Notes: generated from the letters alone by a model not told the origin. A stretch of DNA of 64,000 bases from Peptococcaceae bacterium (GCA_049366715.1 JBMNCQ010000004.1:100470-164469), one strand, 5' to 3'; positions 2,017-57,475 are shown, numbered from the stretch's first letter. Program-made: numbers and translations.

Positions 2017-2041
2017 GTGTCAGGGGACGGTTCTTTGACAC
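2017..2041 (+). repeat. Hairpin repeat copy A (class 1): GTGTCA-GGGGACGGTTCT-t-TGACAC
   Basis: 6-bp inverted arms around the invariant 12-nt core. Preceded by a tandem TGTGTCAG duplication (2007-2022). Confidence 0.85.
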
Positions 2042-2374
2042 ATTTGCCGGTGAATCTGGGGATTTAAATTTTACAGTGCGGTTGGGATTGATTGAGAAAT
2101 ATCACATTAATTAGTAATGGGGCTGTTAGTGCAACAGCCCCTTGTAGGTAGATATTATCAGTGAACTATTAATATGGTGAGGGGTAGGGAATGAGAAAAA
2201 ATACATTGGATTTAAATACTATTTAAAAGCTAAAGCGTCGCTCTGGTTTGAAGATTGCTTTTGATACTGTTAGTCATATGATTTTGGTATCATTCCCCAC
2301 TTCGCACATAGCCACAGGTAGTGATGTTTTATGTTTATTTATAAAGCGTTGTACCTGTTTTTCTCCGCTAAAAT

Positions 2375-3064
2375 TCATTCCGCAGGCGGCATTGCAGAAA
2401 CGAAATCTCTAAGACCATTATCAGAATAGAAGACATAACTTTTCACGCCATGCACTCGGCAAATATAGATTACCTCATCGGTCATTTGGACAGGGATAAG
2501 ATAGGAATGACCATTCACACGTGGGAATCTGATCCTTATATTATCAGATTTGATATACCCACCCCCTGCGGCCTCTCGATATTTTTCCTGTTCTCCAACA
2601 CTCAGCGGCTCAAGTTCCATACAAAATTTTACCAGTTTAGGTATATCCGCTTCGCCGACTGATCTCCGAATTCCATTGTAATACACCCCAACCCTCTCCG
2701 GTGATATGGTATAAGCTGTATTTATGATCTGCTGCGATTGAATCCGAAACGCCCCCAACAGCCCTGCGGATATCGTGAAACCGATTAGTAGCGCGAGAAC
2801 GGGCGCTTGCCATTTCTTTGTTTTCCATAGCAGAACTGCGGCAACAATCGGCGCGACAACTAATGCTGTTAAAATCGCTGTACCATAGCCTTCGGGCGCG
2901 TTGAAATAAGTCAGCTTATCCGGGGAAAAGAGAAACACCATCTTTTCATCGATGTACACAGCCTTTATGTTGATGAAGCAATATACAATAAGAGTCAGAA
3001 AAAGGAAGGCAATCGCCCAATCGCGCCTCCGGGTAATTTTTAGTTTCTTGATTTTCTCAATCAT
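2375..3064 (-). CDS. Hypothetical membrane protein, last gene of the ECF sigma operon
   Basis: 229-aa ORF overlaps the anti-sigma gene by 8 nt. It has hydrophobic segments and I recognise no family. Confidence 0.5.
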   Translation of the reverse strand: MIEKIKKLKITRRRDWAIAFLFLTLIVYCFINIKAVYIDEKMVFLFSPDKLTYFNAPEGYGTAILTALVVAPIVAAVLLWKTKKWQAPVLALLIGFTISAGLLGAFRIQSQQIINTAYTISPERVGVYYNGIRRSVGEADIPKLVKFCMELEPLSVGEQEKYREAAGGGYIKSDNIRIRFPRVNGHSYLIPVQMTDEVIYICRVHGVKSYVFYSDNGLRDFVSAMPPAE

Positions 3065-4019
3065 TGGTCATTCTCCCTTTCTTCATCACATTACTGTAAT
3101 TCCGGCCGGCAATTGATTGGGCAAATTCGGGTGAAATACGATACAGCGTTCCCCGACTTGTTAGCAAATATTGCTTCTCGCAGTTAATAAGAACAAGCAT
3201 GGTCTCCTTTTGATGTCTCCACGTAAATATGACCGGTATTTCCTCGTTGTGGTCACGCATTATGCTGTCATCCTGTACCAAGCCTGAATAGAAAATATTG
3301 TATATATCAGCATCTTTTCCTGGGGTCCAAACTATCGATGCCCCTTCCTTTTCAGGCGGTATCCAAATCTCCTCCACATTTTTCAGCGTTTCCATCTGCT
3401 TGATTTGATAGGCGTTAAAACCAAAGGATAAACCAACCGACAGCACGATCAATACAGCCCAGCAGGCAAGAAATTTCATAAGTCGCTGTAGCGTGAATAT
3501 TCGTTTGTCGCCGGTACAGTAGGCTAACGCTCCATAAATGGCTCCACCGAACAGGACTGCAACAACCCGCTCAGCGATCAGAGTTGCAAAGACCGACTCC
3601 GGGAAAAAATCCGTCTTTAGAAAACTCAGCCCCCCATACCGGATTTCTATATCCGAGTGATGATGCAGCAGGGTATGAATCCAGAAACTGAGTTTATAAG
3701 GGACTGCGATCACAGCCTTTAGCGGCCAGAACCCCATCGTCCTGTAGCTATAGCTGAACCATCCCAAAACCAAGCCAACAATTGTAAAGATAACGATCCT
3801 GCTGATGCCCTTGTCAAATTTTACGACTTGCTGTTTCAGCGTGTCAGGATTCCCTTGATATACGGTTTGCGGTAATTTCATTTTTTGTTCTGCGTCCAGA
3901 TATTCGTCGACCATAGCAGAACATTGCGGGCACCCAGCAAGGTGTGCTTCCAGTTCAGGATCATCGGAACCTTGTGAGTTCAGATAGGATAAGACTCTAT
4001 CATGATATTCGCAGTTCAT
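3057..4019 (-). CDS. Anti-sigma factor (zf-HC2 N-terminus, membrane-spanning)
   Basis: N-terminal HLAGCPQCSAMVDEY zinc-finger motif followed by several TM segments. It abuts the ECF sigma gene directly (4019/4020). Confidence 0.7.
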   Translation of the reverse strand: MNCEYHDRVLSYLNSQGSDDPELEAHLAGCPQCSAMVDEYLDAEQKMKLPQTVYQGNPDTLKQQVVKFDKGISRIVIFTIVGLVLGWFSYSYRTMGFWPLKAVIAVPYKLSFWIHTLLHHHSDIEIRYGGLSFLKTDFFPESVFATLIAERVVAVLFGGAIYGALAYCTGDKRIFTLQRLMKFLACWAVLIVLSVGLSFGFNAYQIKQMETLKNVEEIWIPPEKEGASIVWTPGKDADIYNIFYSGLVQDDSIMRDHNEEIPVIFTWRHQKETMLVLINCEKQYLLTSRGTLYRISPEFAQSIAGRNYSNVMKKGRMTND

Positions 4020-4535
4020 TCAATCACCCCTTGATTCTCCAGACCACTGCTGATACAGTGCCTGATATCGTTTCCTCGCACGAAAGATCCGCAATTTGAC
4101 AGCCGACTCCGACAGCCCCATGATCCGCCCGATTTCCTGATAGGACAATTCCTCATAGTCGCGCAAAAGCAAGACAGACCGGTCGTCCTCCCGTAACGCA
4201 AGCAAAACGTTTCTTATCATTTGTTCATGTTCGCGCAGCAGGATGTTTTCTTCCGGGTCAATACACAGCGCGGGCAACAGATTTGCCCACTCCTGTTCTT
4301 TCAGTAGGATGGGTTTTTTCTTTCTTGCATAGGAGAGAAACGTATTACGAGCAATTTTCAATACCCAAGTTTTTTCACTGCAATCTCCACGAAAGTGGAA
4401 TAAATTCAGGTATATCTTAAGAAAAGTATCCTGGCTCAAATCCTCAGCCGTTTTGCCATCTTTTGTCATGTAAAGCAAATATGCATAAACGACATCTTTC
4501 TGCCGTTCGTAGATATGGTTAAATCGCGCTTTCAC
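4020..4535 (-). CDS. ECF-type RNA polymerase sigma-70 factor
   Basis: Region 2 (DLSQDTFLKIYLNLFHF) and region 4 HTH (LSYQEIGRIMGLSESAVKLRIFRARKRY). Confidence 0.9.
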   Translation of the reverse strand: MKARFNHIYERQKDVVYAYLLYMTKDGKTAEDLSQDTFLKIYLNLFHFRGDCSEKTWVLKIARNTFLSYARKKKPILLKEQEWANLLPALCIDPEENILLREHEQMIRNVLLALREDDRSVLLLRDYEELSYQEIGRIMGLSESAVKLRIFRARKRYQALYQQWSGESRGD

Positions 4536-4696
4536 ACGCTCTCTCCTTCCTTTCCGAGATAAATGATCCTTTTGTAGATATAGACGCGCGCTTTACCCAA
4601 AAGTTACTCTGTTATCATAAATAACTCCAATACAGCATTCTGAAATAAGTTTTCCGCTAGGGATTCTGCAATTCTATTTCGTTCATTTTGAAAAGT

Positions 4697-4721
4697 GTGT
4701 CACAGAACCGTCCCTTGACAC
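4697..4721 (-). repeat. Hairpin repeat copy B (class 1, inverted): GTGTCA-cAGAACCGTCCCt-TGACAC
   Basis: Reverse complement reads GTGTCA-AGGGACGGTTCT-g-TGACAC, with one G>A change in the core. Inverted partner of copy A across the sigma operon. Confidence 0.85.
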
Positions 4722-4802
4722 AATGTAGACACTCTATCTTCAAAGTGAAGAACAAATTGAGATATGCAGCCGGACCAACTTTTAACTCCACACTTTTAGA
4801 CC

Positions 4803-4927
4803 TTAGATTCCTTCCCACGGGAAATCAAACGTATTATTTTCCACGATCCACCTACGTATCGTTGTTGAAGTAACCCCAATACCCCGGCAATCTCTTCTGC
4901 TTTTTACCAAATTTTGCGACTAGCCAT
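4803..4927 (-). pseudogene. Decayed small HTH (excisionase/HTH_17-like) gene remnant
   Basis: My - strand translation gives MASRKIW*KAEEIAGVLG, then after a frameshift VTSTTIRRWIVENNTFDFPWEGI*. It is a classic short HTH interrupted by a stop and a frameshift, about 80 bp from hairpin B. Confidence 0.35.
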
Positions 4928-5393
4928 ATTATTTCTCTTTTATATTCAGGATAAAAACTTTTTGGTTTTGTTTTTCGGTACTGACAATTCCTCTCGCATT
5001 TTTACTATAGATAATTCTATGTAGCTAGCAAAAAAGAAATTTTAAAAAGTTATCTTCTAACCGCTACATCGGCACTGGTATGTTTGCAAGTCAGATTATC
5101 TGCGGCGAGAGGACTTTCAAAAAAGTGATTTGTGACGGTGTTAAAAGTTACTCGCCGAACATAGCTGAAATGTTCACAAAAAAAGCTTGTGGTTTTAACA
5201 TAAAAGTTTTGTTTGAATGCCATAAATAAAAATTATACTATAAAGATGCAAACGATTACAGTAATTTCCGTAAGCAGCATCATATTAAAAGCGAATTAAG
5301 AAAGAAAACGAATGGCATAAGTGAACACCTTTAACCATAAAATTTTCGGACTTTTCGAAAGACTACAATTATTTTAAGAGGAGGCGAAGATAT

Positions 5394-6824
5394 ATGTCTT
5401 ATCCAAATGTTTATCCAACAGGTGTTACGATTTATAACCCTGAAAAGTGCTGGAATGGTTATACAATTCTACCTGCTAAAGAGCTTGGGGCACTACTCAT
5501 TAATATGAATGGAGCGGAAGTGAATCTTTGGGAAGGGCTACATGGATTTCCTAACAAAATGTTGCCAGGAGGATATGTTCTGGGGCATACAGGTGAACGA
5601 CCTAGTAGATTTGGACTCCAAGATCAAAAGGATCTTGTTCAAGTTGACTGGGATGGAAATATCGTTTGGAAATTTAATAAATATGAATATGTAGAAGACC
5701 CTGGTGAAGAGCCGCAATGGATGGCTAGGCAACACCATGATTATCAAAGGGAAGGGAATCCTGTTGGGTATTATGTGCCAGGTATGGATCCCTTCATAGA
5801 TAAAGGAAATACATTACTCCTGGTACACAAAAATCATGTAGTTCCCCAGCTATCCCCCTATGAACTCTCAGATGACGCCATTATTGAAGTTACTTGGGAT
5901 GGTGATATTATATGGGAGTGGGTCTGTTGTGACCACTTTGAAGAACTAGGGTTCAGTGAAGCTGCAAAAAACATATTGCATAGAGATCCGAATCTTAGGG
6001 GAACAGGCAAAGGAGACTGGATGCATATCAACTCAATGTCGGTGCTTGGTCCTAATAAGTGGTATGATGCCGGTGATGAGCGCTTTCATCCCGATAATGT
6101 TATATGGGATGCACGGGAAACAAATATATTGGCTATCATTGATAAGAAGACAGGGAAAATTGTATGGAAAGTTGGACCAGATTATGATAAAGGTGACGAA
6201 GCTAAACTAGGTTGGATTATTGGTCAACACCATTGTCATATGATTCCTCGCGGATTACCGGGTGAAGGAAATATTTTAGTGTTTGATAATGGTGGTTATG
6301 CCGGCTACGGAGCACCTCATGCAAGTTCAAAGACTGGTAGAAAAATTGCTTTAAGAGACTATACTCGTGTTTTAGAGTTTGATCCGGTTACCTTAGATAT
6401 TATTTGGCAATACACACCTGCAGAAGCAGGATTGCTTATGCCCTATGATGCACATCGCTTTTATAGTCCATTTATTAGTAGTGCTCAAAGGCTTCCTAAT
6501 GGAAATACATTGATTACCGAGGGATCCGGCGGAAGAATTATGGAAGTCACTCAAGATCATGAAGTAGTTTGGGAGTATATTAGCCCTTATTGGGGAAATA
6601 AAATGAAAATCAATATGGTATATCGAGCATACAGATTACCGTACGCTTGGGTTCCACAAGTTGAGAAACCTGTAGAAACTCAGATTGAGCGAATTGATGT
6701 AAAAACATTTCGCGTTTCAGGTGCGGAGTCGGTACGACTAAAACAAACTAAGGTTGATGGGGTTACGCCGTTTGATATCGGTGCCGGTTTATGTATCGGA
6801 ACTTTTGAAGAACTAAAGAAGTAG
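5394..6824 (+). CDS. Arylsulfotransferase (ASST)-family protein, no signal peptide
   Basis: 476 aa with strong RBS GAGGAGG. Beta-propeller-like repeats with His-rich motifs (ARQHHDYQ, IGQHHCHMIP) typical of ASST-like proteins. The N-terminus MSYPNVYPTG has no leader. Confidence 0.6.
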   Translation: MSYPNVYPTGVTIYNPEKCWNGYTILPAKELGALLINMNGAEVNLWEGLHGFPNKMLPGGYVLGHTGERPSRFGLQDQKDLVQVDWDGNIVWKFNKYEYVEDPGEEPQWMARQHHDYQREGNPVGYYVPGMDPFIDKGNTLLLVHKNHVVPQLSPYELSDDAIIEVTWDGDIIWEWVCCDHFEELGFSEAAKNILHRDPNLRGTGKGDWMHINSMSVLGPNKWYDAGDERFHPDNVIWDARETNILAIIDKKTGKIVWKVGPDYDKGDEAKLGWIIGQHHCHMIPRGLPGEGNILVFDNGGYAGYGAPHASSKTGRKIALRDYTRVLEFDPVTLDIIWQYTPAEAGLLMPYDAHRFYSPFISSAQRLPNGNTLITEGSGGRIMEVTQDHEVVWEYISPYWGNKMKINMVYRAYRLPYAWVPQVEKPVETQIERIDVKTFRVSGAESVRLKQTKVDGVTPFDIGAGLCIGTFEELKK

Positions 6825-6888
6825 TATATATTTATCAGGGGATAGGGATGTATTCCTACCCCTGATACCTCGAAAAGGAGTGTTAATT

Positions 6889-8298
6889 ATGAGTGAAAAG
6901 ATATTACTTCAAGAACAACCTGCCCAAAAGCTAGACGTTAAATTAATCTTAAAGTGGGCAACTCCGATTATTCTAGCTTTATTAGTTTATGGCCTAACTG
7001 CACCGTTAGGAGAAAGTGTTCGTTTATTTTCAACACTAACAATTTGGGCAGTTTTTTCTTGGGTTTTTGAAATTCTGCCGGAATCTTTAATTGCAATCAT
7101 GCTTGTAACTTTTTACATTTTAGCGGGAGTAGCAAAACCTGCTCAAGTATTTGCTCCTTGGCTTTCAAATATTCCTTGGATTGTATTTGGTGGGCTAATT
7201 TTAAGTATGGCTATGGGAAAAAGTGGTCTAGCCAAAAGAATTGCTTATAAGATTATAGCAGTTATAGGCACATCGTTTATAGGGATTCTTATAGGGTTAG
7301 GAATTATTGGGTTAGTATTAACTCCATTAATATCATCGCCGTCAGCGAAAGTCCTATTACTGGCACCAATTATTATTGGAATATTTCAGGCGTTAGATAT
7401 AAAACCTGGCTCAAAGGCAGGTACGGCACTTATGCTGGGTATTTTCTACGCAGTCTGGTCTCCTAGCTTTCTTTTCATTACTTCTAGTGAAGGTGCACTT
7501 GCTGTTCAAGCTGTACAAAAAGTTACCGGTGAGTCACTTACTTTCACCGGATACATGACTCATATGTCTCTAATTGCAGTATTGTGGACTTTCGTTTCCC
7601 TTGTCACCTTATTATTAATTAAACCAGGAAAATTGCATGTAAATAGGGATACTTTAGATAAAAACCTTAAAGAACTGGGAAGAATAACCAGAGAAGAGAA
7701 AAGCTGTGCATTGCTTTTTATTATAATGCTAATTTTATTCCTTACCGATAAATGGCATAAAACTAACCCTGCGTGGATTATTGTGTTAATTAGTTCACTT
7801 ATGTTTTTCCCTGGAATAAATGTTTTAAAAAAAGAAGATTTATCTAAGGTAAATTTTTTGATTCTCTTTTTTGTTACAGGCGCAATGGGAATTGGTGAAG
7901 CTGCCAACGCATGTGGAGCTACAAAAATTTTCACTGAAGCAGTTATCCCGTTTTTGCAAGATCAATCTGCATCCGCTGTAATCTTAGCAACCTGGCTTAT
8001 AGCGCTTATTGCCAATTTCTTACTAACGCCTGTTGCCATTATGGGAGCACTTTTTGTTCCAATTGTTGAGATTTTTAATACACTCGGTTTAAATCCCTAT
8101 ATAGGTCCGTATTCGTTAATACTAGGCTTTAGCCACCTGCTATTTCCGTATGAAATGGCACCTGCATTAGTAGTTTATTCCTTTGGGTATATTAAGTTAA
8201 ATGATATGATTAAACTGGGTTTTATAAGAATGATTGTAGGAGTTATTTTTATGCTACTTATAGTAATACCTTATTGGAAAATGATTAACCTAATGTAA
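6889..8298 (+). CDS. DASS/SLC13-type anion permease
   Basis: Polytopic protein of about 469 aa. Start set to the ATG at 6889, 8 nt after AAGGAG. Overall pattern matches divalent-anion:Na+ symporter / ArsB-NhaD superfamily permeases. Confidence 0.65.
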   Translation: MSEKILLQEQPAQKLDVKLILKWATPIILALLVYGLTAPLGESVRLFSTLTIWAVFSWVFEILPESLIAIMLVTFYILAGVAKPAQVFAPWLSNIPWIVFGGLILSMAMGKSGLAKRIAYKIIAVIGTSFIGILIGLGIIGLVLTPLISSPSAKVLLLAPIIIGIFQALDIKPGSKAGTALMLGIFYAVWSPSFLFITSSEGALAVQAVQKVTGESLTFTGYMTHMSLIAVLWTFVSLVTLLLIKPGKLHVNRDTLDKNLKELGRITREEKSCALLFIIMLILFLTDKWHKTNPAWIIVLISSLMFFPGINVLKKEDLSKVNFLILFFVTGAMGIGEAANACGATKIFTEAVIPFLQDQSASAVILATWLIALIANFLLTPVAIMGALFVPIVEIFNTLGLNPYIGPYSLILGFSHLLFPYEMAPALVVYSFGYIKLNDMIKLGFIRMIVGVIFMLLIVIPYWKMINLM

Positions 8299-8319
8299 TG
8301 AAAAAATAGATTGGAGATT

Positions 8320-8365
8320 TATATAAACCGGGGTTGATTTAGCCCCGGTTTATATAATGTTTTTG
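8320..8365. terminator. Bidirectional rho-independent terminator between convergent genes
   Basis: TATATAAACCGGGG-ttgatttag-CCCCGGTTTATATA followed by a T-run. Lies between the + strand stop at 8298 and the - strand stop at 8366. Confidence 0.75.
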
Positions 8366-9304
8366 CTAAAATGAATATTCTTTCAAAGAAATTGTTTTGA
8401 GGGTTTTGACAAATTTCTTTGCGGTAGGTGATAGTAAAGTATCTTTAAAAGTTATATATACTATCAGAAGTTCAAAATCAATCTTGGTTTTAATTGGTAT
8501 ATTTACAAAGAGACCTTTTTTTTCGTAACTCTTAGATAGACCATGTGAAATACCTATAGCTAGTCCACTACCAATAATTTCTTGATAAAAATCAAAATCC
8601 CAATTTGCAGTTTTAATTTTAATATTAGGTTCGCCAACACTTTCGAACATTTTGTGGATTGTTTTGATATGCTGTTGAGCATTAAAAACAACAATGGGGT
8701 ATTTTATCAACTCGTTAGGGGTAACAAATTTTCTTTTTGCTAGAGGTGAATTAGGTGCTATACTAGCAAACACTTCACATTTACAGAGTATATCGAAATT
8801 TAAATCTTTTTTATCATTTTCGTCCAGATCATCAAAGGCGTATTTTCTTATGCACAAGAGGCCAATTGTATTATTTTTGTTTTTAAATTCTTTAATTAAT
8901 TCATATGCAGGTAATTCAATGACATTTAAAGCCACTTGAGGATTTCTTTTGTAAAAGGCTAATACTGTTTTTTGCAAAATAGTTTTACTCAACAAATGGG
9001 TTGTGAGAATGCTTAATTCTTTGGCCGTACCAGCTTCTGAGCTTAGGTCGGGTGAAAATAATTCTAACATCTCATCGTATTTTTTTAAAATTTCCTTAGC
9101 GATTTCTATGGCTAGTTTTCCTTCATGTGTAAGAATAAGATTGTTAGATTTACGCTCAAATATAATACCGCCAAGTTCATTTTCGAGGCTTTTAATGGTA
9201 TAACTTAAGCCTTGTTGTGACATGTGCAAAATTTCGGCAGTATGTGAGATTGAACCTATTTTAGCTATATGAACCATTGCCCTTAGCTGATCTATACGCA
9301 TCAT
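8366..9304 (-). CDS. LysR-family transcriptional regulator
   Basis: N-terminal HTH MRIDQLRAMVHIAKIGSISHTAEILHMSQQGLSYTIKSLE plus a LysR substrate-binding half. Confidence 0.9.
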   Translation of the reverse strand: MMRIDQLRAMVHIAKIGSISHTAEILHMSQQGLSYTIKSLENELGGIIFERKSNNLILTHEGKLAIEIAKEILKKYDEMLELFSPDLSSEAGTAKELSILTTHLLSKTILQKTVLAFYKRNPQVALNVIELPAYELIKEFKNKNNTIGLLCIRKYAFDDLDENDKKDLNFDILCKCEVFASIAPNSPLAKRKFVTPNELIKYPIVVFNAQQHIKTIHKMFESVGEPNIKIKTANWDFDFYQEIIGSGLAIGISHGLSKSYEKKGLFVNIPIKTKIDFELLIVYITFKDTLLSPTAKKFVKTLKTISLKEYSF

Positions 9305-9429
9305 TTTAACCCCCTTCTGTTGAAAACTTATTTTGCTTGAAATATTTGGAAAGTTTTGTATAATAATATTTTATCATAATTATGTGATTGCGCAAAGTTT
9401 GTATCAAGTAGTTGTGGGCAAATTTTTCA

Positions 9430-10080
9430 TCTTCCTTGTAGCCAGCTTTTTACTATGGATCGCATTTATTCCACGCTCCTCTTGACAACGAGCCTCTCAC
9501 GGCATATTTTAGGCATCAGAGGCATAAACGCTGCTTTATCGGTAGGTCATTTCTCTAAAATTTTGCAGGTTAAACATGCTGCGTATGACTCTCCGTCCAT
9601 TTATCATCTTGCTGTTTGAAAATGGCATCTCTCCTCGGTGTAAAGATATATTGATTTTTTTACTGTTTTCTTTAGCACGTCTCAACTTCTATAATCCAAG
9701 CCTTCTGGCGGTGTTGGAATTTTCAAGTCTTCTCTATCCTGGTAAATCACTATGCCGTATTTGTTATTCTATATGTATTTCTCCAATACCGTAAGCTTCT
9801 CTACCTCACTCGCTAGACCACCACATTTATACTTTAATTCATCTATTTTTTTCAAAACTTTTTCAAATTCCCCAACCCTGAACCATCGTATTATATGTCT
9901 TCTGGCCTTTTTATCAGATACATTCCTACCTTTGGATTTATAAACTCTGCGACCGCTTCCGCTACTTCTCTGTACGACATCTCATAACTGTGTTCCAATA
10001 TTTTTTCCACTTACAGATACTTCTCCCATCAATGTCTTTATAACTGTTCTTCTGGTTCCTTTATGCCTTATGTCGAGGTG
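9430..10080 (-). pseudogene. Stop-riddled single-frame gene remnant of unknown family
   Basis: My - strand translation keeps one frame for about 650 nt (..RRHIIRWFRVGEFEKVLKKIDELKYKCGGLASEVEKL..GIVIYQDREDLKIPTPPEG..) but has about 6 in-frame stops. It ends next to hairpin C. Confidence 0.3.
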
Positions 10081-10103
10081 CAATGTGTCATGTGTCAGGG
10101 GAT

Positions 10104-10128
10104 GTGTCAGGGGACGGTTCTTTGACAC
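10104..10128 (+). repeat. Hairpin repeat copy C (class 1), identical to copy A
   Basis: GTGTCAGGGGACGGTTCTTTGACAC. Preceded by tandem partial duplications ATGTGTCA / TGTGTCAGGGG / ATGTGTCAGGGG (10084-10113). Confidence 0.85.
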
Positions 10129-10338
10129 ACCCTTCTTTGCACACTTTCCGATTTAAATCCAATAAAGCAGCAATCTTCCGGATTGACAACTGGATTTGGC
10201 TTTTAAGATCACCAGTATCTCTTATAAATAATGTTTATTGTCTTTACTTTTCCATTTACTCATTGATAATCTCTTTGCTTTTAAGTACTCTTCTAAAATA
10301 CCCGGCCTCCTCCGAAGATAATCGTGTCCCGTCGGGTT

Positions 10339-10363
10339 GTGTCACAGAACCGTCCCCTGACAC
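10339..10363 (-). repeat. Hairpin repeat copy D (class 1, inverted)
   Basis: Reverse complement is GTGTCA-GGGGACGGTTCT-g-TGACAC. It forms an inverted doublet with copy C, 210 bp apart. Confidence 0.85.
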
Positions 10364-10586
10364 ACCTCGACACGATGATAGTGCCGGACCAGTAATCATA
10401 ACTGAAGGTCTTGCTGTCTATCGTGGTATTTCCCAGCTATCCTGATTGTTAATGAAATAATTAAACACGTAACATAAAATTTAACAGGTAACAAAAGTTT
10501 TTGAATTTTTGTAGACCCCGTTGCTTTCCCCTCAAAAAAGCCGCTCTCTCTGAGAGCGGCTAAGTGAAAATGACCGGAAGCGGGCT

Positions 10587-20194: not shown

Positions 20195-20390
20195 TTATTT
20201 TTAGCTCCTTTATATTGTGTTGAATTTCACTATCTCTATCTACTACGATAATATTCCTTACGACCATTGTGAAATACCGATTATATATGCCCCCTATAAG
20301 CAAGAAATATTGTAAAAAAACAAGACCTGTCCACACAGGTCTTGACAAACAACTCTTTCGTTCTAAAGTACCTCTCCTATTTACTTTGAA

Positions 20391-23348: not shown

Positions 23349-23493
23349 TTTTCCACCTCTTTTTTCGATTAGGTTATAAATTTTTCTTGACCGCAACTCC
23401 TTTCTCTAAAATTTTCCTTATCTAATTTTGTTAAATAATTCACTTTTGTTTTGATTATAAAATGTCTTTATATATTTGTTAATAAGGAAATAC

Positions 23494-23520
23494 ATATACC
23501 TGATATAATAATAAAATATA
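23494..23520. promoter_or_regulatory. Shared upstream motif site 1: ATATACCTGATATAATAATAAAATATA
   Basis: 146-172 bp upstream of the BCCT start. Matches 41621-41647 at 24 of 27 positions. Confidence 0.5.
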
Positions 23521-41409: not shown

Positions 41410-41620
41410 GCTTATCTCCCCTCTTATTACCTATTCAGGCTTAATATGCAAATAAGAATCATTAGTTCTATTTATAGGTTAATATCTGGGCAGGGTAATG
41501 TAAAATATTGAACATATATACCCCCTATAATCAAAATAAATCTGCATTAAATACACTTCCGCCTTAACTATTGGTATGAGCCGTTCAGCGCCGCCGGCTC
41601 CCATTTAAACTAAGAAATGG

Positions 41621-41647
41621 CTATACCTGATATAGCAATAAAATATA
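41621..41647. promoter_or_regulatory. Shared upstream motif site 2: CTATACCTGATATAGCAATAAAATATA
   Basis: 212-238 bp upstream of the NPP-type gene start. Matches 23494-23520 at 24 of 27 positions. Confidence 0.5.
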
Positions 41648-48085: not shown

Positions 48086-48139
48086 AAGACTAAGCAGTTA
48101 AGCTCTCATTTCAAAGGCCTGTACCGCTTAGTCTTTTTT
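48086..48139 (+). terminator. Probable terminator after the AraC gene
   Basis: AAGACTAAGC-N30-GCTTAGTCTT followed by TTTT. The loop is long. Confidence 0.5.
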
Positions 48140-48374
48140 AATAACGATCTAAGGTCGCATCACTGCTCAATAAATTCCTTTTGCCATAATAATGCAAATT
48201 TTTTTTGATAATTCTAGTATTTTTTGAAATTTTCTGCACTATCCGGGCCTTTTCCCGCTACCTTACCTGCTCTAACAGGTCCCTTCTAACCCTAATCCTA
48301 TACTTTGCAGGATTTGAGCGGCAGCCTTGTTTATGGTAACCGGCCTCCCGCTTCAAGCAATGCGTTTGAGAGAA

Positions 48375-49328: not shown

Positions 49329-50230
49329 ATTATCTGTATCTCCTTTTGGTCTTTATCTTTTTCCGCCAGAAGGTTCAGGAGCTTTTCTTCTTCCCCGGCC
49401 ATCATCTTATAACTGTGCTCCGGTCCCGGATATGTCCCGTCCTGACACTCTTTAATAAATCGTCCGGCTGCTTCAAGGATCACACTACGGATATCCGCAT
49501 ACTTTTTAACAAACTTGGGATTATGCTCATAGAAACCCAGCATGTCATACCAATTGATCATCGGACTGTCACTGTAAGGGCCGCAGCCTGTTCCGAGAAT
49601 GGGAATACTACTCCGCTCATAAATTATTTTTCCTACTTCAGCCGGTACGGCTTCAATCACTACCGCGATCGCGCCGGCTTCTTCAAATGCCGCAACAACC
49701 TCTATCAGTTTAAGGGCAAGCTCCGCACTTCTTCCTTGCGCTTTAAACCCACCCAGCATTAATGCACTCTGGGGTGTTAAGCCAGTATGGGCAATGACCG
49801 GAATACCTGCTTTGGTCAGAGCCTCAATAACGGGAACTATTTCTAATCCTCCTTCGATCTTTACACAATCCATATCTGCTTCACGGATATAGCGCCCGGC
49901 ATTGTGAACCGCTTCTGCGATAGAAGCCTGATAGGTCATAAAAGGCATGTCTCCCATGATAAAAGCTGAGGGGGCACCTTTGCGTACCGCTTTAGCATGT
50001 TCGATCATGATATCAAGGTCAGCTTTTGTTGTAGATGCATAACCAAATGTAATATTGGCGATAGAGTCACCCATGTTAATGATTTCGATACCTGCTTCTT
50101 CGGCAAGTACTGCCATCGGATAATCATACAATGCGGTCCTGGATAATTTTTCGCCTTTGGCCTTTTTCTCCAGGATGTATCCAATTGTAACCTTTTTTCT
50201 TGGTGTTTTTGCTTCTTCTAAATAGGCCAT
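49325..50230 (-). CDS. PanB-like 3-methyl-2-oxobutanoate hydroxymethyltransferase-family enzyme
   Basis: Aligns along its length with E. coli PanB (..MGDS..KGAP..GDMPFMTY..VKIEGG..GLTPQS...GGFKAQGR..IPILGTGCG..YPGPEHSY). No panC, panD or panE nearby. Confidence 0.8.
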   Translation of the reverse strand: MAYLEEAKTPRKKVTIGYILEKKAKGEKLSRTALYDYPMAVLAEEAGIEIINMGDSIANITFGYASTTKADLDIMIEHAKAVRKGAPSAFIMGDMPFMTYQASIAEAVHNAGRYIREADMDCVKIEGGLEIVPVIEALTKAGIPVIAHTGLTPQSALMLGGFKAQGRSAELALKLIEVVAAFEEAGAIAVVIEAVPAEVGKIIYERSSIPILGTGCGPYSDSPMINWYDMLGFYEHNPKFVKKYADIRSVILEAAGRFIKECQDGTYPGPEHSYKMMAGEEEKLLNLLAEKDKDQKEIQII

Positions 50231-50268
50231 TGTTTATTTCCTCCTTATGGTTTTCTGGCTTTGAACAA

Positions 50269-51042
50269 TTACCATTCTTCAGGGGGGAGAATATCTTTTA
50301 AACTTTCGTAAGATTTTCCCTGGGCAATTGCATCAACCAAAACTTCTTCCCGTTTGGCATCTTGAAGCAGTCTCTCCAGCACTGCTTCAACCTGATCATA
50401 GGGAATAAAACAAACACCATTGTCATCAGCTACCACTAAATCTCCGGGATTTACAGATACACCGCCGCAGGCAATAGGTCCATTTATCTCTATCGTTCCT
50501 ACCCGGTGCCTCCCGGTTATAGGAGTTACGCCTCTGCTCCAAACTCCGAATCCTAATCTTCTCATTAAGCCTGTATCCCTGACTCCTCCGTCGACAATAC
50601 AAGCGGCTACTCCCGAATTAACGGCATATTGAGTAGAAAGGCCACCCATCGTGGAAATTTCACTCCTGCCGCCATTATCAAAAACAACGATATCCCCGGC
50701 CCGGGCTATTGCATATGCGTCTTTATCACCCAATTTAGCTTTTTTAGATGTTTGCAAAGCTTCCTTGGGCACGACCTCCTCCGGAATATATCTGATTGTT
50801 ATGGCCGGACCTGCAACGACTTTTCCGGAGCAAACCGGTTTAAGAACAGAGGCCGGTACCGTCCTGGCTATTCCTAAATCATCTAGAATATCAGAAATTG
50901 AAGGAGTAGGGTCTTCAATAGCCATAAAGCTTTTAATAATTTCTTTTGCTGGTCTGGGAAAGCTTATTTTCACAAAATTTTCCTTGTCTACTACGCCGGC
51001 AAGCTTGTGCTCAACTTCTTTCCATTCGTCCGCTTTTATCAA
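50269..51042 (-). CDS. RraA-like / class II HMG-CHA aldolase-oxaloacetate decarboxylase family protein
   Basis: GDIVVFDNGG..STMGGLSTQYAVNSGVAACIVDGGVRD motif. Start set to the TTG at 51042, after GAGGAGG. Confidence 0.7.
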   Translation of the reverse strand: MIKADEWKEVEHKLAGVVDKENFVKISFPRPAKEIIKSFMAIEDPTPSISDILDDLGIARTVPASVLKPVCSGKVVAGPAITIRYIPEEVVPKEALQTSKKAKLGDKDAYAIARAGDIVVFDNGGRSEISTMGGLSTQYAVNSGVAACIVDGGVRDTGLMRRLGFGVWSRGVTPITGRHRVGTIEINGPIACGGVSVNPGDLVVADDNGVCFIPYDQVEAVLERLLQDAKREEVLVDAIAQGKSYESLKDILPPEEW

Positions 51043-51112
51043 AATTAATCCTCCTCTCAATCAACCTATTTTTTTTGACATTTAAAGTATAGTCCAAACT
51101 TAAAACAACAGA

Positions 51113-51151
51113 TATCGATTTGTTGAGTTCTTATTTGTATATCTTGCTATG
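51113..51151 (+). repeat. 39-bp direct repeat copy 1 (TATCGATTTGTTGAGTTCTTATTTGTATATCTTGCTATG)
   Basis: 36 of 39 positions identical to 55539-55577. Lies 71-109 bp upstream of the RraA-like start. Confidence 0.85.
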
Positions 51152-51416
51152 TATCGTCAACCGACCAAGGGGAATTCTGAATGCCAATATTTCCCTGCAT
51201 AACTGCACCTTAATTAGTCTCATTACTCATGAGCTAAAAAAGCGGTCCGGAATTTTATCCGGGCCGCCATAGGTTACGGAAATCATTGCTGCTGTTTCAT
51301 TATGGAATTCTCCACCAGCACTATTTAAAGCCAAAATCCGGCAGAGTTGTCTGACGTTTAAAAAGAATCGGGTGAATATGCTTTGCATCTTCCGAGTAGA
51401 AATCCCGGGCAGAATT

Positions 51417-52178
51417 TTACAACACCGGATAAACTTTATTTTCGAGGACTTTGTCGTCATGACTGGGGATAACTGTAGCATGATAAGACTTCATTTTTTG
51501 AATGCTCTCATAATATTTCGCCATATCCAGACACAGACCGCTGATTACGAAATCATCTCCCGGGCAGTTATCGTACAGCGGAACGGCATCGGATGCCAGT
51601 AAATGAGGACCCTTTTCCGTATCCACAACGACACCCTGTAATCCCAAAGTATGACCTGGGATATGAATCAACTTAATGCCTTCCATTAATTCATAATCAC
51701 CGTCAATGTACTTCCAGCGGGTATCTTGCCGCGCCCACGGCGGAACAACACCCGTAGCGAAGGCCTCATATGTTATCATGAATCTGGGGAGAGGATCAAC
51801 TGCTCCTAACATTTCGCTTCTCTGAACATAGAAATCTGCCTGGGGGAACAAATGATTATTGTAACAATGATCCCAATGCAGATGGGTCATGATTACCGTG
51901 TCAATTTCTGCGCATTTCACCCCCAGGGCTGCCAGGGCCCGGCCGGGTTCTTCCTCGGGAGATCTGGTGCTCGGCCCGTGAAAACTGACCTTCATGGATT
52001 CCGTATCAGGGTCGCCACAACCGGTATCGACCAGAATCTTTTTCCCCTTTCCTTCAATCAAAAAAATCAAAACAGGAAAATCTTCTTTTTCCTTGTAATG
52101 ATCCTGATTAGATGAAAATGCACCCCGATAATATAAAATACTTCCCACTTTTATCGGTTTGATTGTATAATTCGCCAT
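51417..52178 (-). CDS. Metallo-beta-lactamase-fold hydrolase (lactonase-like)
   Basis: HLHWDH (HxHxDH) motif, plus downstream HIPGHT and the Asp in LLASDAV. Confidence 0.8.
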   Translation of the reverse strand: MANYTIKPIKVGSILYYRGAFSSNQDHYKEKEDFPVLIFLIEGKGKKILVDTGCGDPDTESMKVSFHGPSTRSPEEEPGRALAALGVKCAEIDTVIMTHLHWDHCYNNHLFPQADFYVQRSEMLGAVDPLPRFMITYEAFATGVVPPWARQDTRWKYIDGDYELMEGIKLIHIPGHTLGLQGVVVDTEKGPHLLASDAVPLYDNCPGDDFVISGLCLDMAKYYESIQKMKSYHATVIPSHDDKVLENKVYPVL

Positions 52179-52208
52179 ATTTTATTCTCCTTTCCGGTAT
52201 GAATTGTA

Positions 52209-53513
52209 TTAAATGAACATAGTTGATAAAAAAGGAATAAATGTGATCAATAAGATACCGATTATCCCGGAAATTACAAAAGGAATGATGCGTTTAAATA
52301 CAGAATCTACCGTCAAGCTTGACATGCCGGCAGAAAGAAAAACATTAGCACCAAAAGGCGGGGTGTACATGCCGATTGCCAGATTTGTACATGTAATGAC
52401 GCCGAAATGAACCAGATCAACTCCGAATTTAGCGGCAACGGGGTAAATCAACGGTACTACTAACAAAATAATCGAGCTTGTTTCCATCAGCATACCGGCA
52501 ATAAGGTATAACACATTCATCATTAGCAGAAATACAAATTGATTTGGGGAAACAGTTATAAACCATTCCGATACCATTTTGGGAATATGCAGCGTTGTCA
52601 TGACCCAGCCAAAGAAACTTGCGGTACCAATCAGGAACATGATTACGGCACTTGTCACCGCAGAATTCTTCAGTGCATTCCAGATCGTCTTGAAAGTCAG
52701 CTCCTTATACCAGAATACCCCGACAATAATGGCATAAATTGAAGCGATTACAGCCGACTCAGTGGGAGTAAATAAACCGGAATAAATTCCGCCCAGTACA
52801 ATAACCGGTGTTAAAATTGCCGGTATACCGTCTATCAAGGTCTTTTTCACGTCCACTTTTTCCCTTTCCTTTTCCTTTTCAAGAGCCATTCCATTTCTGA
52901 TAATGATAAACTGAGAAGTACCCATATAAATTATCGACATTAAAAACCCCGGAATAATTATCGCCATAAATAATTTGCCCACAGAGGCACCTGTTAAGGT
53001 CCCATATAAAATTAATGGAATCGAAGGGGGAATCATCAGACCTAAAGTGCCGCTGCAGGCAACAATTGCAGAAGCAAAAGGCGGATCATAATCATTATTT
53101 TTCGTCATTTCCGGATACAAAATGCCTCCTACTGCTGCAGAAGTAGCAAGGGCGGAACCGGAAATGGCACCAAAAAAAGCACTGGAAGAAAAACAAATTA
53201 ACGAAAGATTGCCGCGAAATCTACCGAAAAATAATTTGGCGATATTGATTAGCCTACGGGAGATACCTCCCTGCATCATTAAATCTCCGGCCATGATAAA
53301 AAAAACAATGGCCAGCAAGGGAAAGGAGTTGATTGCGGTAAATACTCGTTGTGGAAAAACCATTAAAGGAATATTATTATCAGTTATTAATACAATAACG
53401 CCGGCAGCCCCCAATGCATATGCAATGGGAAGTCCGATTACGATCAACGCCACAGCGCTTATACATAAAATTGCTCCTAAAGAAACCAAATACATCGCCT
53501 CCATTGTGGTCAA
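52209..53513 (-). CDS. dctM: TRAP transporter large permease
   Basis: 434 aa, polytopic, a paralog of the protein encoded at 15255-16550. Confidence 0.9.
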   Translation of the reverse strand: MTTMEAMYLVSLGAILCISAVALIVIGLPIAYALGAAGVIVLITDNNIPLMVFPQRVFTAINSFPLLAIVFFIMAGDLMMQGGISRRLINIAKLFFGRFRGNLSLICFSSSAFFGAISGSALATSAAVGGILYPEMTKNNDYDPPFASAIVACSGTLGLMIPPSIPLILYGTLTGASVGKLFMAIIIPGFLMSIIYMGTSQFIIIRNGMALEKEKEREKVDVKKTLIDGIPAILTPVIVLGGIYSGLFTPTESAVIASIYAIIVGVFWYKELTFKTIWNALKNSAVTSAVIMFLIGTASFFGWVMTTLHIPKMVSEWFITVSPNQFVFLLMMNVLYLIAGMLMETSSIILLVVPLIYPVAAKFGVDLVHFGVITCTNLAIGMYTPPFGANVFLSAGMSSLTVDSVFKRIIPFVISGIIGILLITFIPFLSTMFI

Positions 53514-53543
53514 TAACCCCTAATGTAATAGCTCAAATCATGC

Positions 53544-54038
53544 TTATTGCAGACTTTTGTCTTTTTCCATTTTGAAATAAGTATGAATTTCATCAAATGT
53601 ATATATAAGAGCTAAAACACTGCCCACGGGCAAAGCCAAATAGACAATACCCATCTTCAGAAATTTCATAGATGCGGATACCTGCCCCATCGTTTTCATT
53701 GACAACTCCCAGCCATATATGGCCAGAATAACAAATAATCCGATTTGAATAATAAAATTAATGATGACCAGAATATTCTTCAGCACTTCACTTTTCTTAG
53801 CTATAAATTCCGTGAAACTGCTCACGACGGCGAGTGCCTTCACCCGGATACCCATGCAGATGCCTAACATAGTGGCCCAAATATATAAATAACGGAGCAA
53901 TTCTTCAGACCAGGATAATGAGTTTGACAAAAGGTATCTCCAAAACACCTGCATACCGCCGACAACAAGCATTACTACTAAAATCATCACTAATATTGCA
54001 TAAATTAACGTATCTAAATATTTATAGCACCGCTCCAT
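53544..54038 (-). CDS. dctQ: TRAP transporter small permease
   Basis: 164 aa with 4 TM segments. Confidence 0.85.
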   Translation of the reverse strand: MERCYKYLDTLIYAILVMILVVMLVVGGMQVFWRYLLSNSLSWSEELLRYLYIWATMLGICMGIRVKALAVVSSFTEFIAKKSEVLKNILVIINFIIQIGLFVILAIYGWELSMKTMGQVSASMKFLKMGIVYLALPVGSVLALIYTFDEIHTYFKMEKDKSLQ

Positions 54039-54130
54039 TGGCAGTCACAAACCTCCTTAATTATAATGAAGACATACCGACATCAGAAGACCGCCGGTAT
54101 GTCATTAACAAATGACCTCTTAGCTGAATC

Positions 54131-55138
54131 CTATTTCGACAGGGCCCTGATCTCGTCCAGCTTATCTCCATATTCAGCTTTGTATTTCTCATACACAGGC
54201 TGAACAGCTTCGGTAAAGCTGGTCTTGTCCGGATAATTAACAGTCATGCCGGCCGCCTCCATAGCAGCAACGTCGGCATTAACTTTTCTTGCTTCCTCCC
54301 GCTGGTAAATTTTCGCTTTATCGGCAGCATCCAGCAAAATCCCCTGATCTTCTTCAGACAGAGAATTAAATAGCTCGGCATTAATCAGCAGCTCGGCAGG
54401 AGCATAAAGGTGCTCGGTCATAGCAAGATATTTATTAACTTCGAAAATCTTACCGTCGCGTACTGCCATCAGCGGGTTTTCCTGTCCGTCGATGGTACCC
54501 TGGGATAAAGCTGTATATACTTCCCCCCAGGACATAGGTGTTGCATTTGCCCCCATAGCGTTGAAAGCTGCGATATGAATCTCACTTTCCATAGTACGAA
54601 TCTTCATATTTTCCAAATCTGCCACCGTATTGATCGGTTTATTGGAGGTCATATTTCTGAACCCGTTTTCAAAATATGCCAAACCCACAATACCGATATC
54701 ATTCAATTCATCCAAAAGGGATTTGCCGATCTCACCGTCAAGAACAGCCGCCACATGATCGAAGTCCCTGAACATATACGGGAATTCAAACACACTAAAG
54801 TTTTTCGAGAAATTAGTCAGAGGTGCGTTAGTAGTAATACACATATCTATGGTTCCTATTCCGGTTCCCTCAACCAGGTCACGTTCTTGCCCAAGAGTAC
54901 CGGCAGGGTAAATTTCAACTTGTATTCTTGAATCCGTTGCTTCTTCCACTAATTCTTTGAAACGAACGGCACCTAGATGATAGGGATGAGCTTCAGTCTG
55001 GCCATGCCCAAGTTTAATAACAACGGCCTCGCTCTCAGTCTTATCTGCAGCTGGAGTAGGTTCAGATTTCGAACTGCAGCCGGTAAAAATTGTTAATATG
55101 AACACCAAAATTAATATTATTGCACTCAATCTCTTCAT
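54131..55138 (-). CDS. dctP: TRAP transporter solute-binding lipoprotein
   Basis: Lipobox IFTGCSSKS and a DctP-family body. Confidence 0.9.
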   Translation of the reverse strand: MKRLSAIILILVFILTIFTGCSSKSEPTPAADKTESEAVVIKLGHGQTEAHPYHLGAVRFKELVEEATDSRIQVEIYPAGTLGQERDLVEGTGIGTIDMCITTNAPLTNFSKNFSVFEFPYMFRDFDHVAAVLDGEIGKSLLDELNDIGIVGLAYFENGFRNMTSNKPINTVADLENMKIRTMESEIHIAAFNAMGANATPMSWGEVYTALSQGTIDGQENPLMAVRDGKIFEVNKYLAMTEHLYAPAELLINAELFNSLSEEDQGILLDAADKAKIYQREEARKVNADVAAMEAAGMTVNYPDKTSFTEAVQPVYEKYKAEYGDKLDEIRALSK

Positions 55139-55538
55139 TAAAATTTCCTCCCCTTTTAATTTGCCTTACTTTTAGCCTCATGCATCATTGTCTAGAAAAA
55201 CTTGTAATGCAAAATGACTTTTAAGTCTTTCTTATAGAAGAATACGCGCCACCACCTCCTAAATACTATAATATTGTCGTAACAACAGGCGCTCAGCACC
55301 TGTTTCTTATATCCACTAAAAGCACACTCAGCATATTTTTCAAAACTAAATCATCATAACCGTTATCTCAAGAAAACACGTTAAATCGGTAATGTGAAAA
55401 TCTAATTTTTCTCTACATACTTTATAGTTAAAATCAGAACTTTCGATAAAATTTGCTCAATTTTATGGAACAAATCCTCTAAAAGGAAGTCTGAGATGAG
55501 TCCGTATTCTAAGTATAAGGCAAATTATATGGATCAAC

Positions 55539-55577
55539 TATCGATTTGTTGAGATATTATTTGTATATCTTGCTATG
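55539..55577 (+). repeat. 39-bp direct repeat copy 2
   Basis: TATCGATTTGTTGAGATATTATTTGTATATCTTGCTATG, 401-439 bp upstream of the second dctP start. Confidence 0.85.
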
Positions 55578-55653
55578 GATATTATGGATATTACGGATAT
55601 GGATATCGCGGAAGCATAGGCGAAGCATGGGGAAGCATGGGGAAGCATGGGGG

Positions 55654-55682
55654 GGAAGCATGGGGACGGTTCTTTTGCTTCC
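55654..55682 (+). repeat. Hairpin repeat copy E (class 2): GGAAGCA-tGGGGACGGTTCTtt-TGCTTCC
   Basis: 7-bp arms around the invariant core. Preceded by about four tandem GAAGCATGGGG units (55617-55665). Confidence 0.85.
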
Positions 55683-55856
55683 TCTCCCCCAAAACCGTCC
55701 TGATCCTCGAAGGCCACCGGAGGATCTCAGCCGCTAAAATTCCGTTAGAAATCTTTTTTAAGCCTATCTTAAACTGTTTAATTATTATAACACTCTAATT
55801 ATTCAGAGGCATTTAGCAGCACTTTCCTCCCTGCCGTCAAGCCCTTGATACAAATT

Positions 55857-55902
55857 AAGCACAAGCAGACAACCCCTTCCCGGACTTGTTTGCTTGTGCT
55901 TC
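55857..55902 (-). terminator. Stem-loop downstream of sstT (weak terminator)
   Basis: AAGCACAAGCA..N..TGCTTGTGCTT stem 80 bp past the stop. The U-tract is poor. Confidence 0.4.
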
Positions 55903-55981
55903 TATCGTATAATATTAATTTGTTATTATATCAGCCTAATTATAGAAATAAAGAAAATCAAGGAAGCAGCATAAATTCATT

Positions 55982-57214
55982 CTATTTCCTGATAATAATT
56001 TCTCTGCCTTCTTTACGCCATTGGGCAAATTCAGCTACTGCCGTAAAAAGCACATCTGTGGATGAGTTAAGGGCTGTTTCACAGGAATCCTGTACAACCC
56101 CTATGATAAATCCCACTCCAACTACCTTCATTGCAATGTCATTGGGAATGCCAAATAAACTACACGCCAGGGGGATCAATAATAGTGACCCCCCGGCTAC
56201 TCCGGAAGCGCCGCAAGCACTTATGGCCGCCATGATACTGAGGATTAGCGCTGTAGCCATATCTACTTCAATACCTAAGGTATTAACCGCTGCGAGGGTC
56301 AAAATAGTAATTGTAATAGCCGCACCGGCCATATTAATGGTAGCCCCTAATGGGATAGATACAGAATAAGTATCTTTATCTAACCCCAGTTTTTCACATA
56401 AACTCATATTCACAGGAATATTTGCCGCCGAACTACGGGTAAAAAATGCAGTAATCCCACTTTCCCTTAAACACTTAAATACAAGGGGATACGGGTTTTG
56501 CCGGATATTTATCAATGCTATAATCGGATTGACAATAAGTGCCATAAAAAACATTGTTCCGACCAAAACGGTAAGTAACTGTCCGTAGCTAAGTAAAGAT
56601 TGTATTCCATTGGTAGCAATAGCTTCAAATACCAGCCCCATAATTCCTAGCGGGGCCAGGCTGATAACCCATCTAACCATTTGGGATAATGCTCCTGAGA
56701 AATCAGCTATCATTGTCTTTGTAGAATCAGGTGCCGACCTTAATGCAAGACCCAAAAGTACCGCCCAGGACAATATTCCAATATAATTAGCATTATAAAG
56801 TGCTTTAACAGGGTTATCAACGATATTCAGCAGCAATGTCTTGAGAACCTCGGCTACACCTCCGGGAGGAGTCATATTCTCTGCCCCTGCGGTAAGTGTT
56901 AAGCTTACCGGGAACATAAAACTTGTCACGATTGCTGTCAGGGCAGCCAAAAATGTTCCTAGCAAATAGAGTAGGATAATGGATTTCATATTCGTTTGCT
57001 GACCACTCTGGTGCTGAGAAATAGCCGACATAACCAGAAAGAACACCAGTATAGGGGCAATTGCTTTTAAAGCGCCTACAAATAAAGAACCTAGAATAAC
57101 GATAGGCCTTGCCATATCCGGAATTGTCACAGCTAAAATAATCCCTATAATCAAACCTACAATTATTCGTTTCACTAAGCTCAGTTGATTCCACCTCTGC
57201 AATAATTTAATCAA
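55982..57214 (-). CDS. sstT: Serine/threonine:Na+ symporter SstT (DAACS family)
   Basis: Near-colinear with E. coli SstT ([89 protein letters not shown]). Confidence 0.95.
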
Positions 57215-57455
57215 ATTTTATCTTCCTCCCATAGATATAATAGAAAAATTTTTTCGGCCGACTAATAATATTTAGTCTGCACCAAGTACAATTTTACCAT
57301 TAACCCTCATCAACATGAAACAATAAAATATCAAAAACAAGTAAAAAAATATGCCAAATTTTTCTATAGACATCCACGTTCTGGTTTAGAAAAAGCTCCT
57401 AAAAAAAAACAAGGCCGCACTACGCAGCCTGCTTATTTATAATATTTACCGTTTA

Positions 57456-57475
57456 GGAAGCAGAAGAACCGTCCC
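57456..57475 (-). repeat. Hairpin repeat copy F (class 2, inverted; left arm decayed)
   Basis: GGAAGCA-gaAGAACCGTCCCC. The reverse complement carries the intact core plus the TGCTTCC arm, while the opposite arm is degenerate. Confidence 0.75.

Follow-up and report, generated by a model that had tools for sequence, protein, structure and literature searches.

What is to be made of a short inverted repeat whose copies alternate in orientation along bacterial DNA and seem to fence off whole genes? The question is raised by 64,000 nucleotides from a Peptococcaceae bacterium (GCA_049366715.1 JBMNCQ010000004.1:100470-164469), called the window below and numbered from its first letter, in which a core, GGGACGGTTCT, occurs in nine exact copies (A to I, Table 1), two of them on either side of a gene for a REP-associated tyrosine transposase (RAYT; REP, repetitive extragenic palindrome). 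A first-pass annotation proposed that the copies are hairpins in convergent pairs enclosing gene cassettes, and that the enclosed genes may be, or once were, mobilisable in trans. In the reading that we consider likely, a RAYT/REP system widespread in the Bacillota has these hairpins as its REP elements and the convergent doublet as its unit, with the RAYT gene inside one such doublet. The brackets around the transporter gene sstT and around a sigma factor operon are, as transposable units, unproven. For the source genome the scope is this one 64-kb window.

A repeat tied to a transposase gene

All nine core copies are intergenic, and in dinucleotide-preserving shuffles of the window the core was present 0.57 times on average and never more than twice. 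The arms fall into two classes, TGTGTCA/TGACACA in copies A to D (class 1) and GAAGCA/TGCTTCC in copies E to I (class 2). That the copies are hairpins holds for six of the nine: a stem of 6–7 bp around a loop of 13–15 nt is possible in A, B, C, D, E and G, while F, H and I have kept the core and the right arm intact but, with a decayed left arm that leaves 2–4 bp of stem, fold no better than shuffles. The stems are weak throughout the window (7 bp with a loop of 13–15 nt; fold z-scores -0.5 to -1.9). Hairpins A and C have the same sequence, and between B and D there is a single base difference; immediately 3′ of the core, A and C have T whereas B and D have G. Is there more to the copies than the hairpin? 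Their flanks have nothing in common beyond its ~30 nt, and since the best local alignments of the nine flanks score within the range of shuffles, there are no longer, shared transposon ends.

What is encoded between G and H? As the first-pass annotation had it, a RAYT. The product matches PF01797 (E = 1.7e-14) and, barely, NCBIfam NF047646 (REP_Tyr_transpos; 80.5 bits for a cut-off of 80), is 100% identical to a GenBank 'REP-associated tyrosine transposase' (P0001) of a Peptococcaceae metagenome-assembled genome (MAG), and aligns to Escherichia coli TnpAREP (PDB 4ER8; E = 1e-5) with HLH opposite HMH and YIHQNP opposite YIYINP, both in register. Going by these matches, the gene is that of a Y1 HUH transposase of RAYT type. 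Homologues in Peptococcaceae BICA1-8 and Dehalobacterium, 71–73% identical, have unrelated neighbouring genes with no synteny to the window; the same core precedes them by ~60 nt, oriented as the gene, and a second copy, inverted, follows directly 3′. At the nucleotide level the window is homologous to those loci from 58541 to 59434-59436, i.e., exactly from hairpin G to hairpin H, and every RAYT examined (that in the window, those of BICA1-8 and Dehalobacterium, and those of five further genomes) is inside a convergent pair. As judged from these alignments, the hairpins travel with the RAYT gene between species.

The start of the RAYT gene merits a remark of its own. On the minus strand at 59380-59436 the right arm of the upstream hairpin (TTGCTT...) is followed, 17 nt later, by TGTTATAAT, in place of which two other species have TAAAAT 5′ of RAYT (L001 9932-10000; L004 9931-10000). 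The RAYT promoter seems to overlap its own REP copy, and this suggests autoregulation; the extended -10 was recognised by eye only, a promoter scanner having made no call of a sigma-70 promoter inside H. In two Dehalobacterium assemblies, the final ~47 nt of the gene that lies upstream of RAYT reappear on its downstream side (L004 10781-10900; L005 6776-6950), with another copy of the downstream hairpin after them, an arrangement absent in a third assembly (L006 6061-6130). That duplication is a strain polymorphism at a REP.

A family of convergent doublets

How general is the repeat? A pattern scan of GTDB representative genomes yielded at least 120 loci, in arbitrary 8-kb stretches and all from genomes other than the source genome; among the matches listed, the hairpin is present in many Bacilli (Neobacillus, Rossellomorea, Oceanobacillus, Mesobacillus) and in Clostridia (Pelotomaculum, Desulfosporosinus, Syntrophomonas and others). 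It has a conserved 11-nt loop, nnGGGACGGTTCTnn, and a stem of 6–7 bp that depends on lineage, the sole invariant stretch being GGGACGGTTCT. The arms follow the pattern G-A/T-N-N-C-A, with the lineage versions GAAGCA, GAATCA, GACTCA, GAGACA and GACACA. Over the seven proposed pairs of 116 unselected copies with an exact core, 75% of cells are Watson-Crick or G-U, against 59% in shuffles (0 of 500 reach 75%) and 32–50% with a slid partner, and in the same copies double-sided stem changes number 138 versus 55 expected. On this comparative evidence the repeat is a real structured element tied to RAYT.

Its arrangement is equally regular. Adjacent copies less than 150 nt apart at the 120 listed loci are convergent in 57 cases, tandem in 27 and divergent in 1, and after clustering these loci have 51 clean '+-' doublets and 127 singletons. 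Convergent core-to-core distances there have their main mode at 26–61 nt, with others at 74–134 nt and a few at 180–393 nt; among the wide convergent pairs, at 850–1140 nt, five enclose RAYT genes. The convergent doublet is the natural unit of the family and is REPIN-like (REPIN, REP doublet forming hairpin). On the doublet nature, as on the link to RAYT, the first-pass annotation was right.

A proportion of the copies have tandem partial copies, left arm plus GGG(G), 5′ of the hairpin: 32 of 266 family copies (~12%), compared with 10 of 266 in a mirror-image downstream control. In the window these precede E, C, A (2007-2015) and I (60764-60790), and elsewhere they are at L075, L054, L136 and L004 to L006. 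They terminate at GGGG or GGGGAC, and one may speculate that they hint at a break, slippage or template switch within the conserved loop. By analogy with E. coli TnpAREP and IS608 TnpA, the RAYT would recognise the REP hairpin on single-stranded DNA, and would nick and rejoin it, seeding copies into nearby intergenic DNA; as the loop is conserved and the stem is free to vary, the transposase may well read the loop in a sequence-specific manner.

Could the hairpins instead act as RNA or other regulatory elements, i.e., as terminators, mRNA stabilisers or operators, and not as transposase substrates? F and G are each between a stop codon and a terminator-like hairpin, and H adjoins the -10 region of the RAYT gene. 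However, copies are in both orientations relative to transcription, the stems are as weak as described above, Rfam has no match anywhere in the window, and the RAYT link is constant across species; taken together these make a regulatory role very improbable indeed.

Genuine-looking family hairpins and doublets are also present on a predicted viral contig of IMG/VR (L016 9445-9499) and in MAGs that are not labelled as Bacillota, one of Prevotella (L078) and two of Atribacterota (L027 and L049). They could stem from horizontal spread, from mis-binning, or from host sequence caught up in viral contigs.

What is the alternation worth?

Along the window the order of the copies is + - + - + - + - -, just as the first-pass annotation gave it for nine copies at their positions. 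With independent orientations, alternation at 7 or more of the 8 steps has a nominal P of 9/256 = 0.035. The alternation is thus only nominally unusual, and for C/D and G/H convergence is a family trait: as convergent doublets and a RAYT within a pair are its norm, both are expected architecture. C and D, their cores 235 nt apart, do enclose an essentially empty segment, 208 nt of non-coding DNA with no convincing gene. A/B and E/F are the sole remaining singleton pairs in the window, each with a chance of about 1/4 of being convergent. Pair members were also said always to share a stem class. That is true but uninformative: class 1 is present only at 2–10 kb and class 2 only at 55–61 kb, and with the classes clustered by region same-class pairing is trivial.

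Do singletons elsewhere face each other more often than they should? At the listed loci of other genomes, adjacent singletons of all spacings share their orientation in 17 pairs, converge in 13 and diverge in 8. Four of the 13 convergent pairs are around RAYT, five are loose doublets (180–400 nt) and four are around other genes (L025, L078, L092 and L094), to which a fifth may be added, L035, scored apart as its left end is a tandem cluster. For neighbouring singletons separated by more than 500 nt of DNA without RAYT, the small sample of listed loci gives 4 convergent (5 with L035) versus 6 divergent. Wide pairs around DNA other than RAYT are accordingly no more often convergent than divergent; convergent brackets around ordinary genes exist, at about the rate of randomly oriented singletons. 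Nearer to home, of the six successive intergenic gaps around the RAYT gene five are occupied by the class-2 copies, a pattern more like local accumulation than bracketing.

The order in the window may be parsed as follows. G/H would be the RAYT-bearing doublet and C/D a loose empty one; E (perhaps with a decayed partner), F and I would be single copies accumulated in successive gaps near the RAYT gene; and A/B would be a class-1 doublet separated by the sigma cassette.

The segment between E and F

The only gene between E and F is, as had been noted, sstT, for a transporter of the SDF family. Its nearest homologues (L140-L141), with 88% and 85% protein identity, are in unrelated neighbourhoods, and the core motif is absent at both of these loci. 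Nucleotide alignment, at 79–82%, covers 55980-57234 only, the span of the sstT open reading frame (ORF) ±20 nt. Copy F is between the hxlR stop codon (57498) and the terminator-like hairpin of hxlR (57430-57412); with that terminator falling inside E-F, the segment is not a clean sstT unit. E itself has a candidate partner, 29 nt away at 55691-55702 on the minus strand, that matches at 9 of 12 positions, for which the chance estimate is ~1–5%. Going by this match, E may be a decayed doublet by itself, and hence unpaired from F.

A 75-nt direct repeat (51080-51154 and 55506-55580; 77% identity, with a 42-nt core at 93%) is upstream of two minus-strand genes, one of them TRAP dctP, and may be a shared operator or promoter.

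The sigma cassette between A and B

The A/B segment is the more instructive of the two. Its content is as described earlier: genes for a sigma-70-family factor of extracytoplasmic function (ECF) type, for a 320-aa anti-sigma (the NCBI name) and for a 229-aa membrane protein. They are part of a homology block of 2617 bp that is 89% identical to L142 9354-11964, from the closest lineage (L142-L145). Identity is 0.89–0.94 in coding segments and 0.70–0.83 in the promoter region and the 324-nt 3′ flank, and beyond the block it is at the background of ~0.3–0.4. Between the block and hairpin A there are 8 nt, and 28 nt separate its other end from hairpin B. Three other lineages have the same three-gene cassette, with anti-sigma identities of 88%, 77% and 76%, and it is a compact unit in four unrelated genomic contexts, at 81–89% nucleotide identity (window 2051-4667; L142, L146, L148). 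A search for the same cassette at other loci had been proposed as a check on the bracketing idea. It is found in those three lineages, in every case hairpin-free, with no core motif within ±10 kb of the cassette (L142-L148). One of these copies, in L148, has phage-like genes and a tyrosine integrase beside it; searches of plasmid and phage collections did not find the cassette.

When the cassette is deleted in silico, A and B become a convergent pair with a spacer of 36 nt and a core-to-core distance of 63 nt, slightly past the main mode of 26–61 nt for doublets at the listed loci, and with the same left-type/right-type composition as the C/D doublet. The gap upstream is 858 nt, ~730 nt of it outside the block, and the chance that both hairpins abut the block would, as a rough estimate, be ~1–2%. 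As hairpins do not accompany the cassette from genome to genome, it is simplest to suppose that it inserted into, or recombined at, a pre-existing doublet. That A and B are halves of a class-1 doublet now split by a 2.6-kb sigma cassette, which moves independently of the hairpins, is about an even bet.

Need A and B have a common history at all? Every copy, A and B included, might be an independent single-REP insertion, with neither the alternation nor the proximity of A and B to the cassette having a common cause. The 127 singletons to 51 doublets at the listed loci, with random-looking relative orientations, would fit, as would the five class-2 copies in successive gaps around RAYT and the merely nominal P for the alternation. 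However, both cassette boundaries are less than 30 nt from a hairpin despite the 858-nt upstream gap, and A/B repeats C/D in both composition and orientation; coincidence throughout is a serious contender but on the unlikely side.

At the other extreme, convergent hairpin pairs with the genes they enclose would be composite REPIN-like non-autonomous transposons, their cargo mobilised in trans by the RAYT now or formerly, as the first-pass annotation suggested. The RAYT gene is, after all, 'cargo' in a convergent pair and moves with its hairpins; convergent pairs are also found round single non-RAYT genes at four of the listed loci (L025, L035, L092, L094); and the cassette block, with its ends so near to A and B, has different contexts in four lineages. 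The coincidence at the A/B junctions is the one result favouring the cargo reading. It is suggestive, and it is equally expected if the cassette inserted into a doublet. Set against these are the hairpin-free state of the cassette in three other lineages and of the sstT homologues, the lack of enrichment of wide convergent pairs at the listed loci, the position of F within the 3′ region of hxlR, ahead of that gene's terminator, the possibility that E has its own partner, flanks without common sequence beyond the hairpin, and the fact that none of the bracketed units was seen twice. Mobilisation of the bracketed genes in trans via the hairpins is thus not borne out, and composite transposons of this kind are quite improbable. 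A version confined to A/B has a REPIN spacer taking up a mobile ECF sigma cassette, with the RAYT able to excise or copy hairpin-cassette-hairpin by a nick at about the GGGG-ACGG junction, the site that the 5′ partial iterations suggest; this too is rather improbable.

To return to the REP/RAYT system with its split doublet, what weighs against it? Copy number, RAYT count and orientations in the source genome are known from the 64-kb window only. The repeats are without the GTAG or CGTC foot tag of classified REP super-families, their conserved part being the loop, and the recognition mode may be unlike that of E. coli TnpAREP. For A/B, the split doublet rests on one coincidence, that of the ~1–2% estimate given above, and a search of metagenomes for an empty site with the flanking arylsulfotransferase gave at best 74% identity, with no synteny and no hairpins.

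Relation to known systems

To our knowledge, REP/RAYT systems have been studied almost wholly in Proteobacteria; the hosts here are Bacillota. In the REPIN/RAYT literature searched, the word 'Firmicutes' is nowhere to be found and Clostridia are mentioned once (PMC5581495), and searches for the motif string and for RAYTs in Bacillus led to unrelated papers only. The REP/RAYT type described here is undescribed in that literature.

In what respects is it familiar? As in the 'REPtrons' of E. coli (REP-BIME/TnpAREP; BIME, bacterial interspersed mosaic element) and Pseudomonas, a single Y1 HUH gene is between two inverted palindromes, and a short extragenic palindrome is scattered in intergenic DNA, also as inverted dimers. 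Unlike the E. coli and Pseudomonas REPs, the window family has an invariant 11-nt loop and a compensatory, lineage-variable stem, and whereas E. coli TnpAREP has 165 aa, the window RAYT has 259 aa, with an extra C-terminal region past the aligned part. Classified REP super-families have the tetranucleotide GTAG or CGTC at the foot of the stem (PMC3733652), where the window arms start with G-A/T-N-N-C-A. A place in the CGTC-tagged family was entertained, as the reverse complement of the core contains CGTC, and rejected: that tag is at the stem foot, the loops are of 4–5 nt and there is no RAYT link (PMC3733652).

A REPIN is defined as two inverted REPs with a spacer between them (PMC3337134); head-to-head REP dimers predominate, and DNA can be inserted between the partners of a dimer (PMC3733652). 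The REPINs of Bertels and Rainey (PMC3116915, PMC3337134) resemble the present family in the dominance of short-spacer convergent doublets and in being non-autonomous and RAYT-linked. They differ in that the only cargo-free doublet of the window, C/D, has a long spacer (208 nt) and in that most copies here are singletons.

Two further comparisons are worth making. The origins of rolling-circle Rep proteins (geminivirus, circovirus) likewise have a conserved loop nonamer in a variable stem, upstream iterons and an enzyme of the HUH superfamily; the window has neither replicon nor Rep gene, and the resemblance, nicking in the loop included, is no more than a likeness. Insertion sequences of the IS200/IS605 group and their cargo-bearing or miniature derivatives share with the window a Y1 HUH transposase, sub-terminal hairpin ends and the possibility of passenger genes. 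At IS200/IS605 ends both hairpins are on one strand; by contrast, the flanking copies in the window are inverted, and no multi-copy whole element was seen.

Coordinates and other features of the window

Table 1. Repeat copies and associated features of the window (core, first position and orientation of GGGACGGTTCT)
Feature	Position	Strand	Core	Remarks
REP hairpin A, class 1	2016..2042	+	2024+	TGTGTCA-G-GGGACGGTTCT-T-TGACACA; one partial left-arm copy immediately 5′
Sigma/anti-sigma/membrane-protein cassette with promoter region and 324-nt 3′ flank	2051..4667	-		discrete homology block
REP hairpin B, class 1	4696..4722	-	4704-	28 nt from the sigma cassette block
REP hairpin C, class 1	10103..10129	+	10111+	left half of loose doublet; 5′ of it, two partial left-arm copies (10084-10102)
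REP hairpin D, class 1	10338..10364	-	10346-	right half of loose doublet; spacer 208 nt
REP hairpin E, class 2	55611..55683 (hairpin 55655-55683)	+	55663+	preceded by four tandem partial GAAGCATGGG (55611-55654)
Candidate decayed partner of E (tentative)	55691..55702	-		9/12 match to the 12-mer GGGGACGGTTCT; tight-doublet spacing
sstT, SDF-family transporter	55982..57214	-		homology to nearest relatives is the ORF ±20 nt (55980-57234)
Terminator-like hairpin and T run, 3′ of hxlR	57412..57430	-		inside the stretch from E to F, after F
REP copy F, class 2	57455..57483	-	57465-	left arm decayed; in hxlR 3′ region
REP hairpin G, class 2	58541..58567	+	58548+	inverted copy immediately 3′ of the RAYT stop codon
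RAYT gene, 259 aa	58581..59360	-		Y1_Tnp domain, HUH motif (HLH), YIHQNP tyrosine
REP copy H, class 2	59411..59436	-	59420-	~50 nt 5′ of the RAYT start, in gene orientation; left arm decayed; directly before TGTTATAAT
REP copy I, class 2	60744..60770	-	60753-	singleton, oriented as H; left arm decayed; one partial 5′ iteration

Two decayed genes had been seen next to copies B and C. The supposed excisionase-like helix-turn-helix (HTH) remnant at 4803-4927 is, on the minus strand, a frameshifted HTH-like stretch (…AEEIAGVLGVTSTTIRRWIVENN…) with weak hits to HTH_23, HTH_28 and HTH_17 (E = 0.003–0.02), the HTH hits as a whole being sub-threshold (E = 0.003–0.09), so that the label stays tentative; the supposed gene remnant at 9430-10080 has no Pfam match and no ORF of 100 aa or more. 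The window has no tRNA genes as possible integration sites. An AT-rich motif (…ATATA(T/C)(G/A)CCCCCTATAA… / …ATACCTGATATA…; families D3 and D5) is present at 20268-20310, 23477-23520, 41499-41541 and 41614-41647; the three intergenic regions concerned all lie upstream of long operons on the minus strand.

Significance

The main present value of these results is for annotation: neither the repeats nor their pairing should be taken as the ends of transposons around sstT or the sigma operon. Beyond that, the window documents a Bacillota-wide REP family with a conserved loop and a freely varying stem, which points to a different mode of transposase recognition. If it is true that the A/B doublet captured the cassette, REP doublets would be places where genomes acquire genes and perhaps also the means by which they do so, and the capture would be relevant to the influence of domesticated transposases on genome content.

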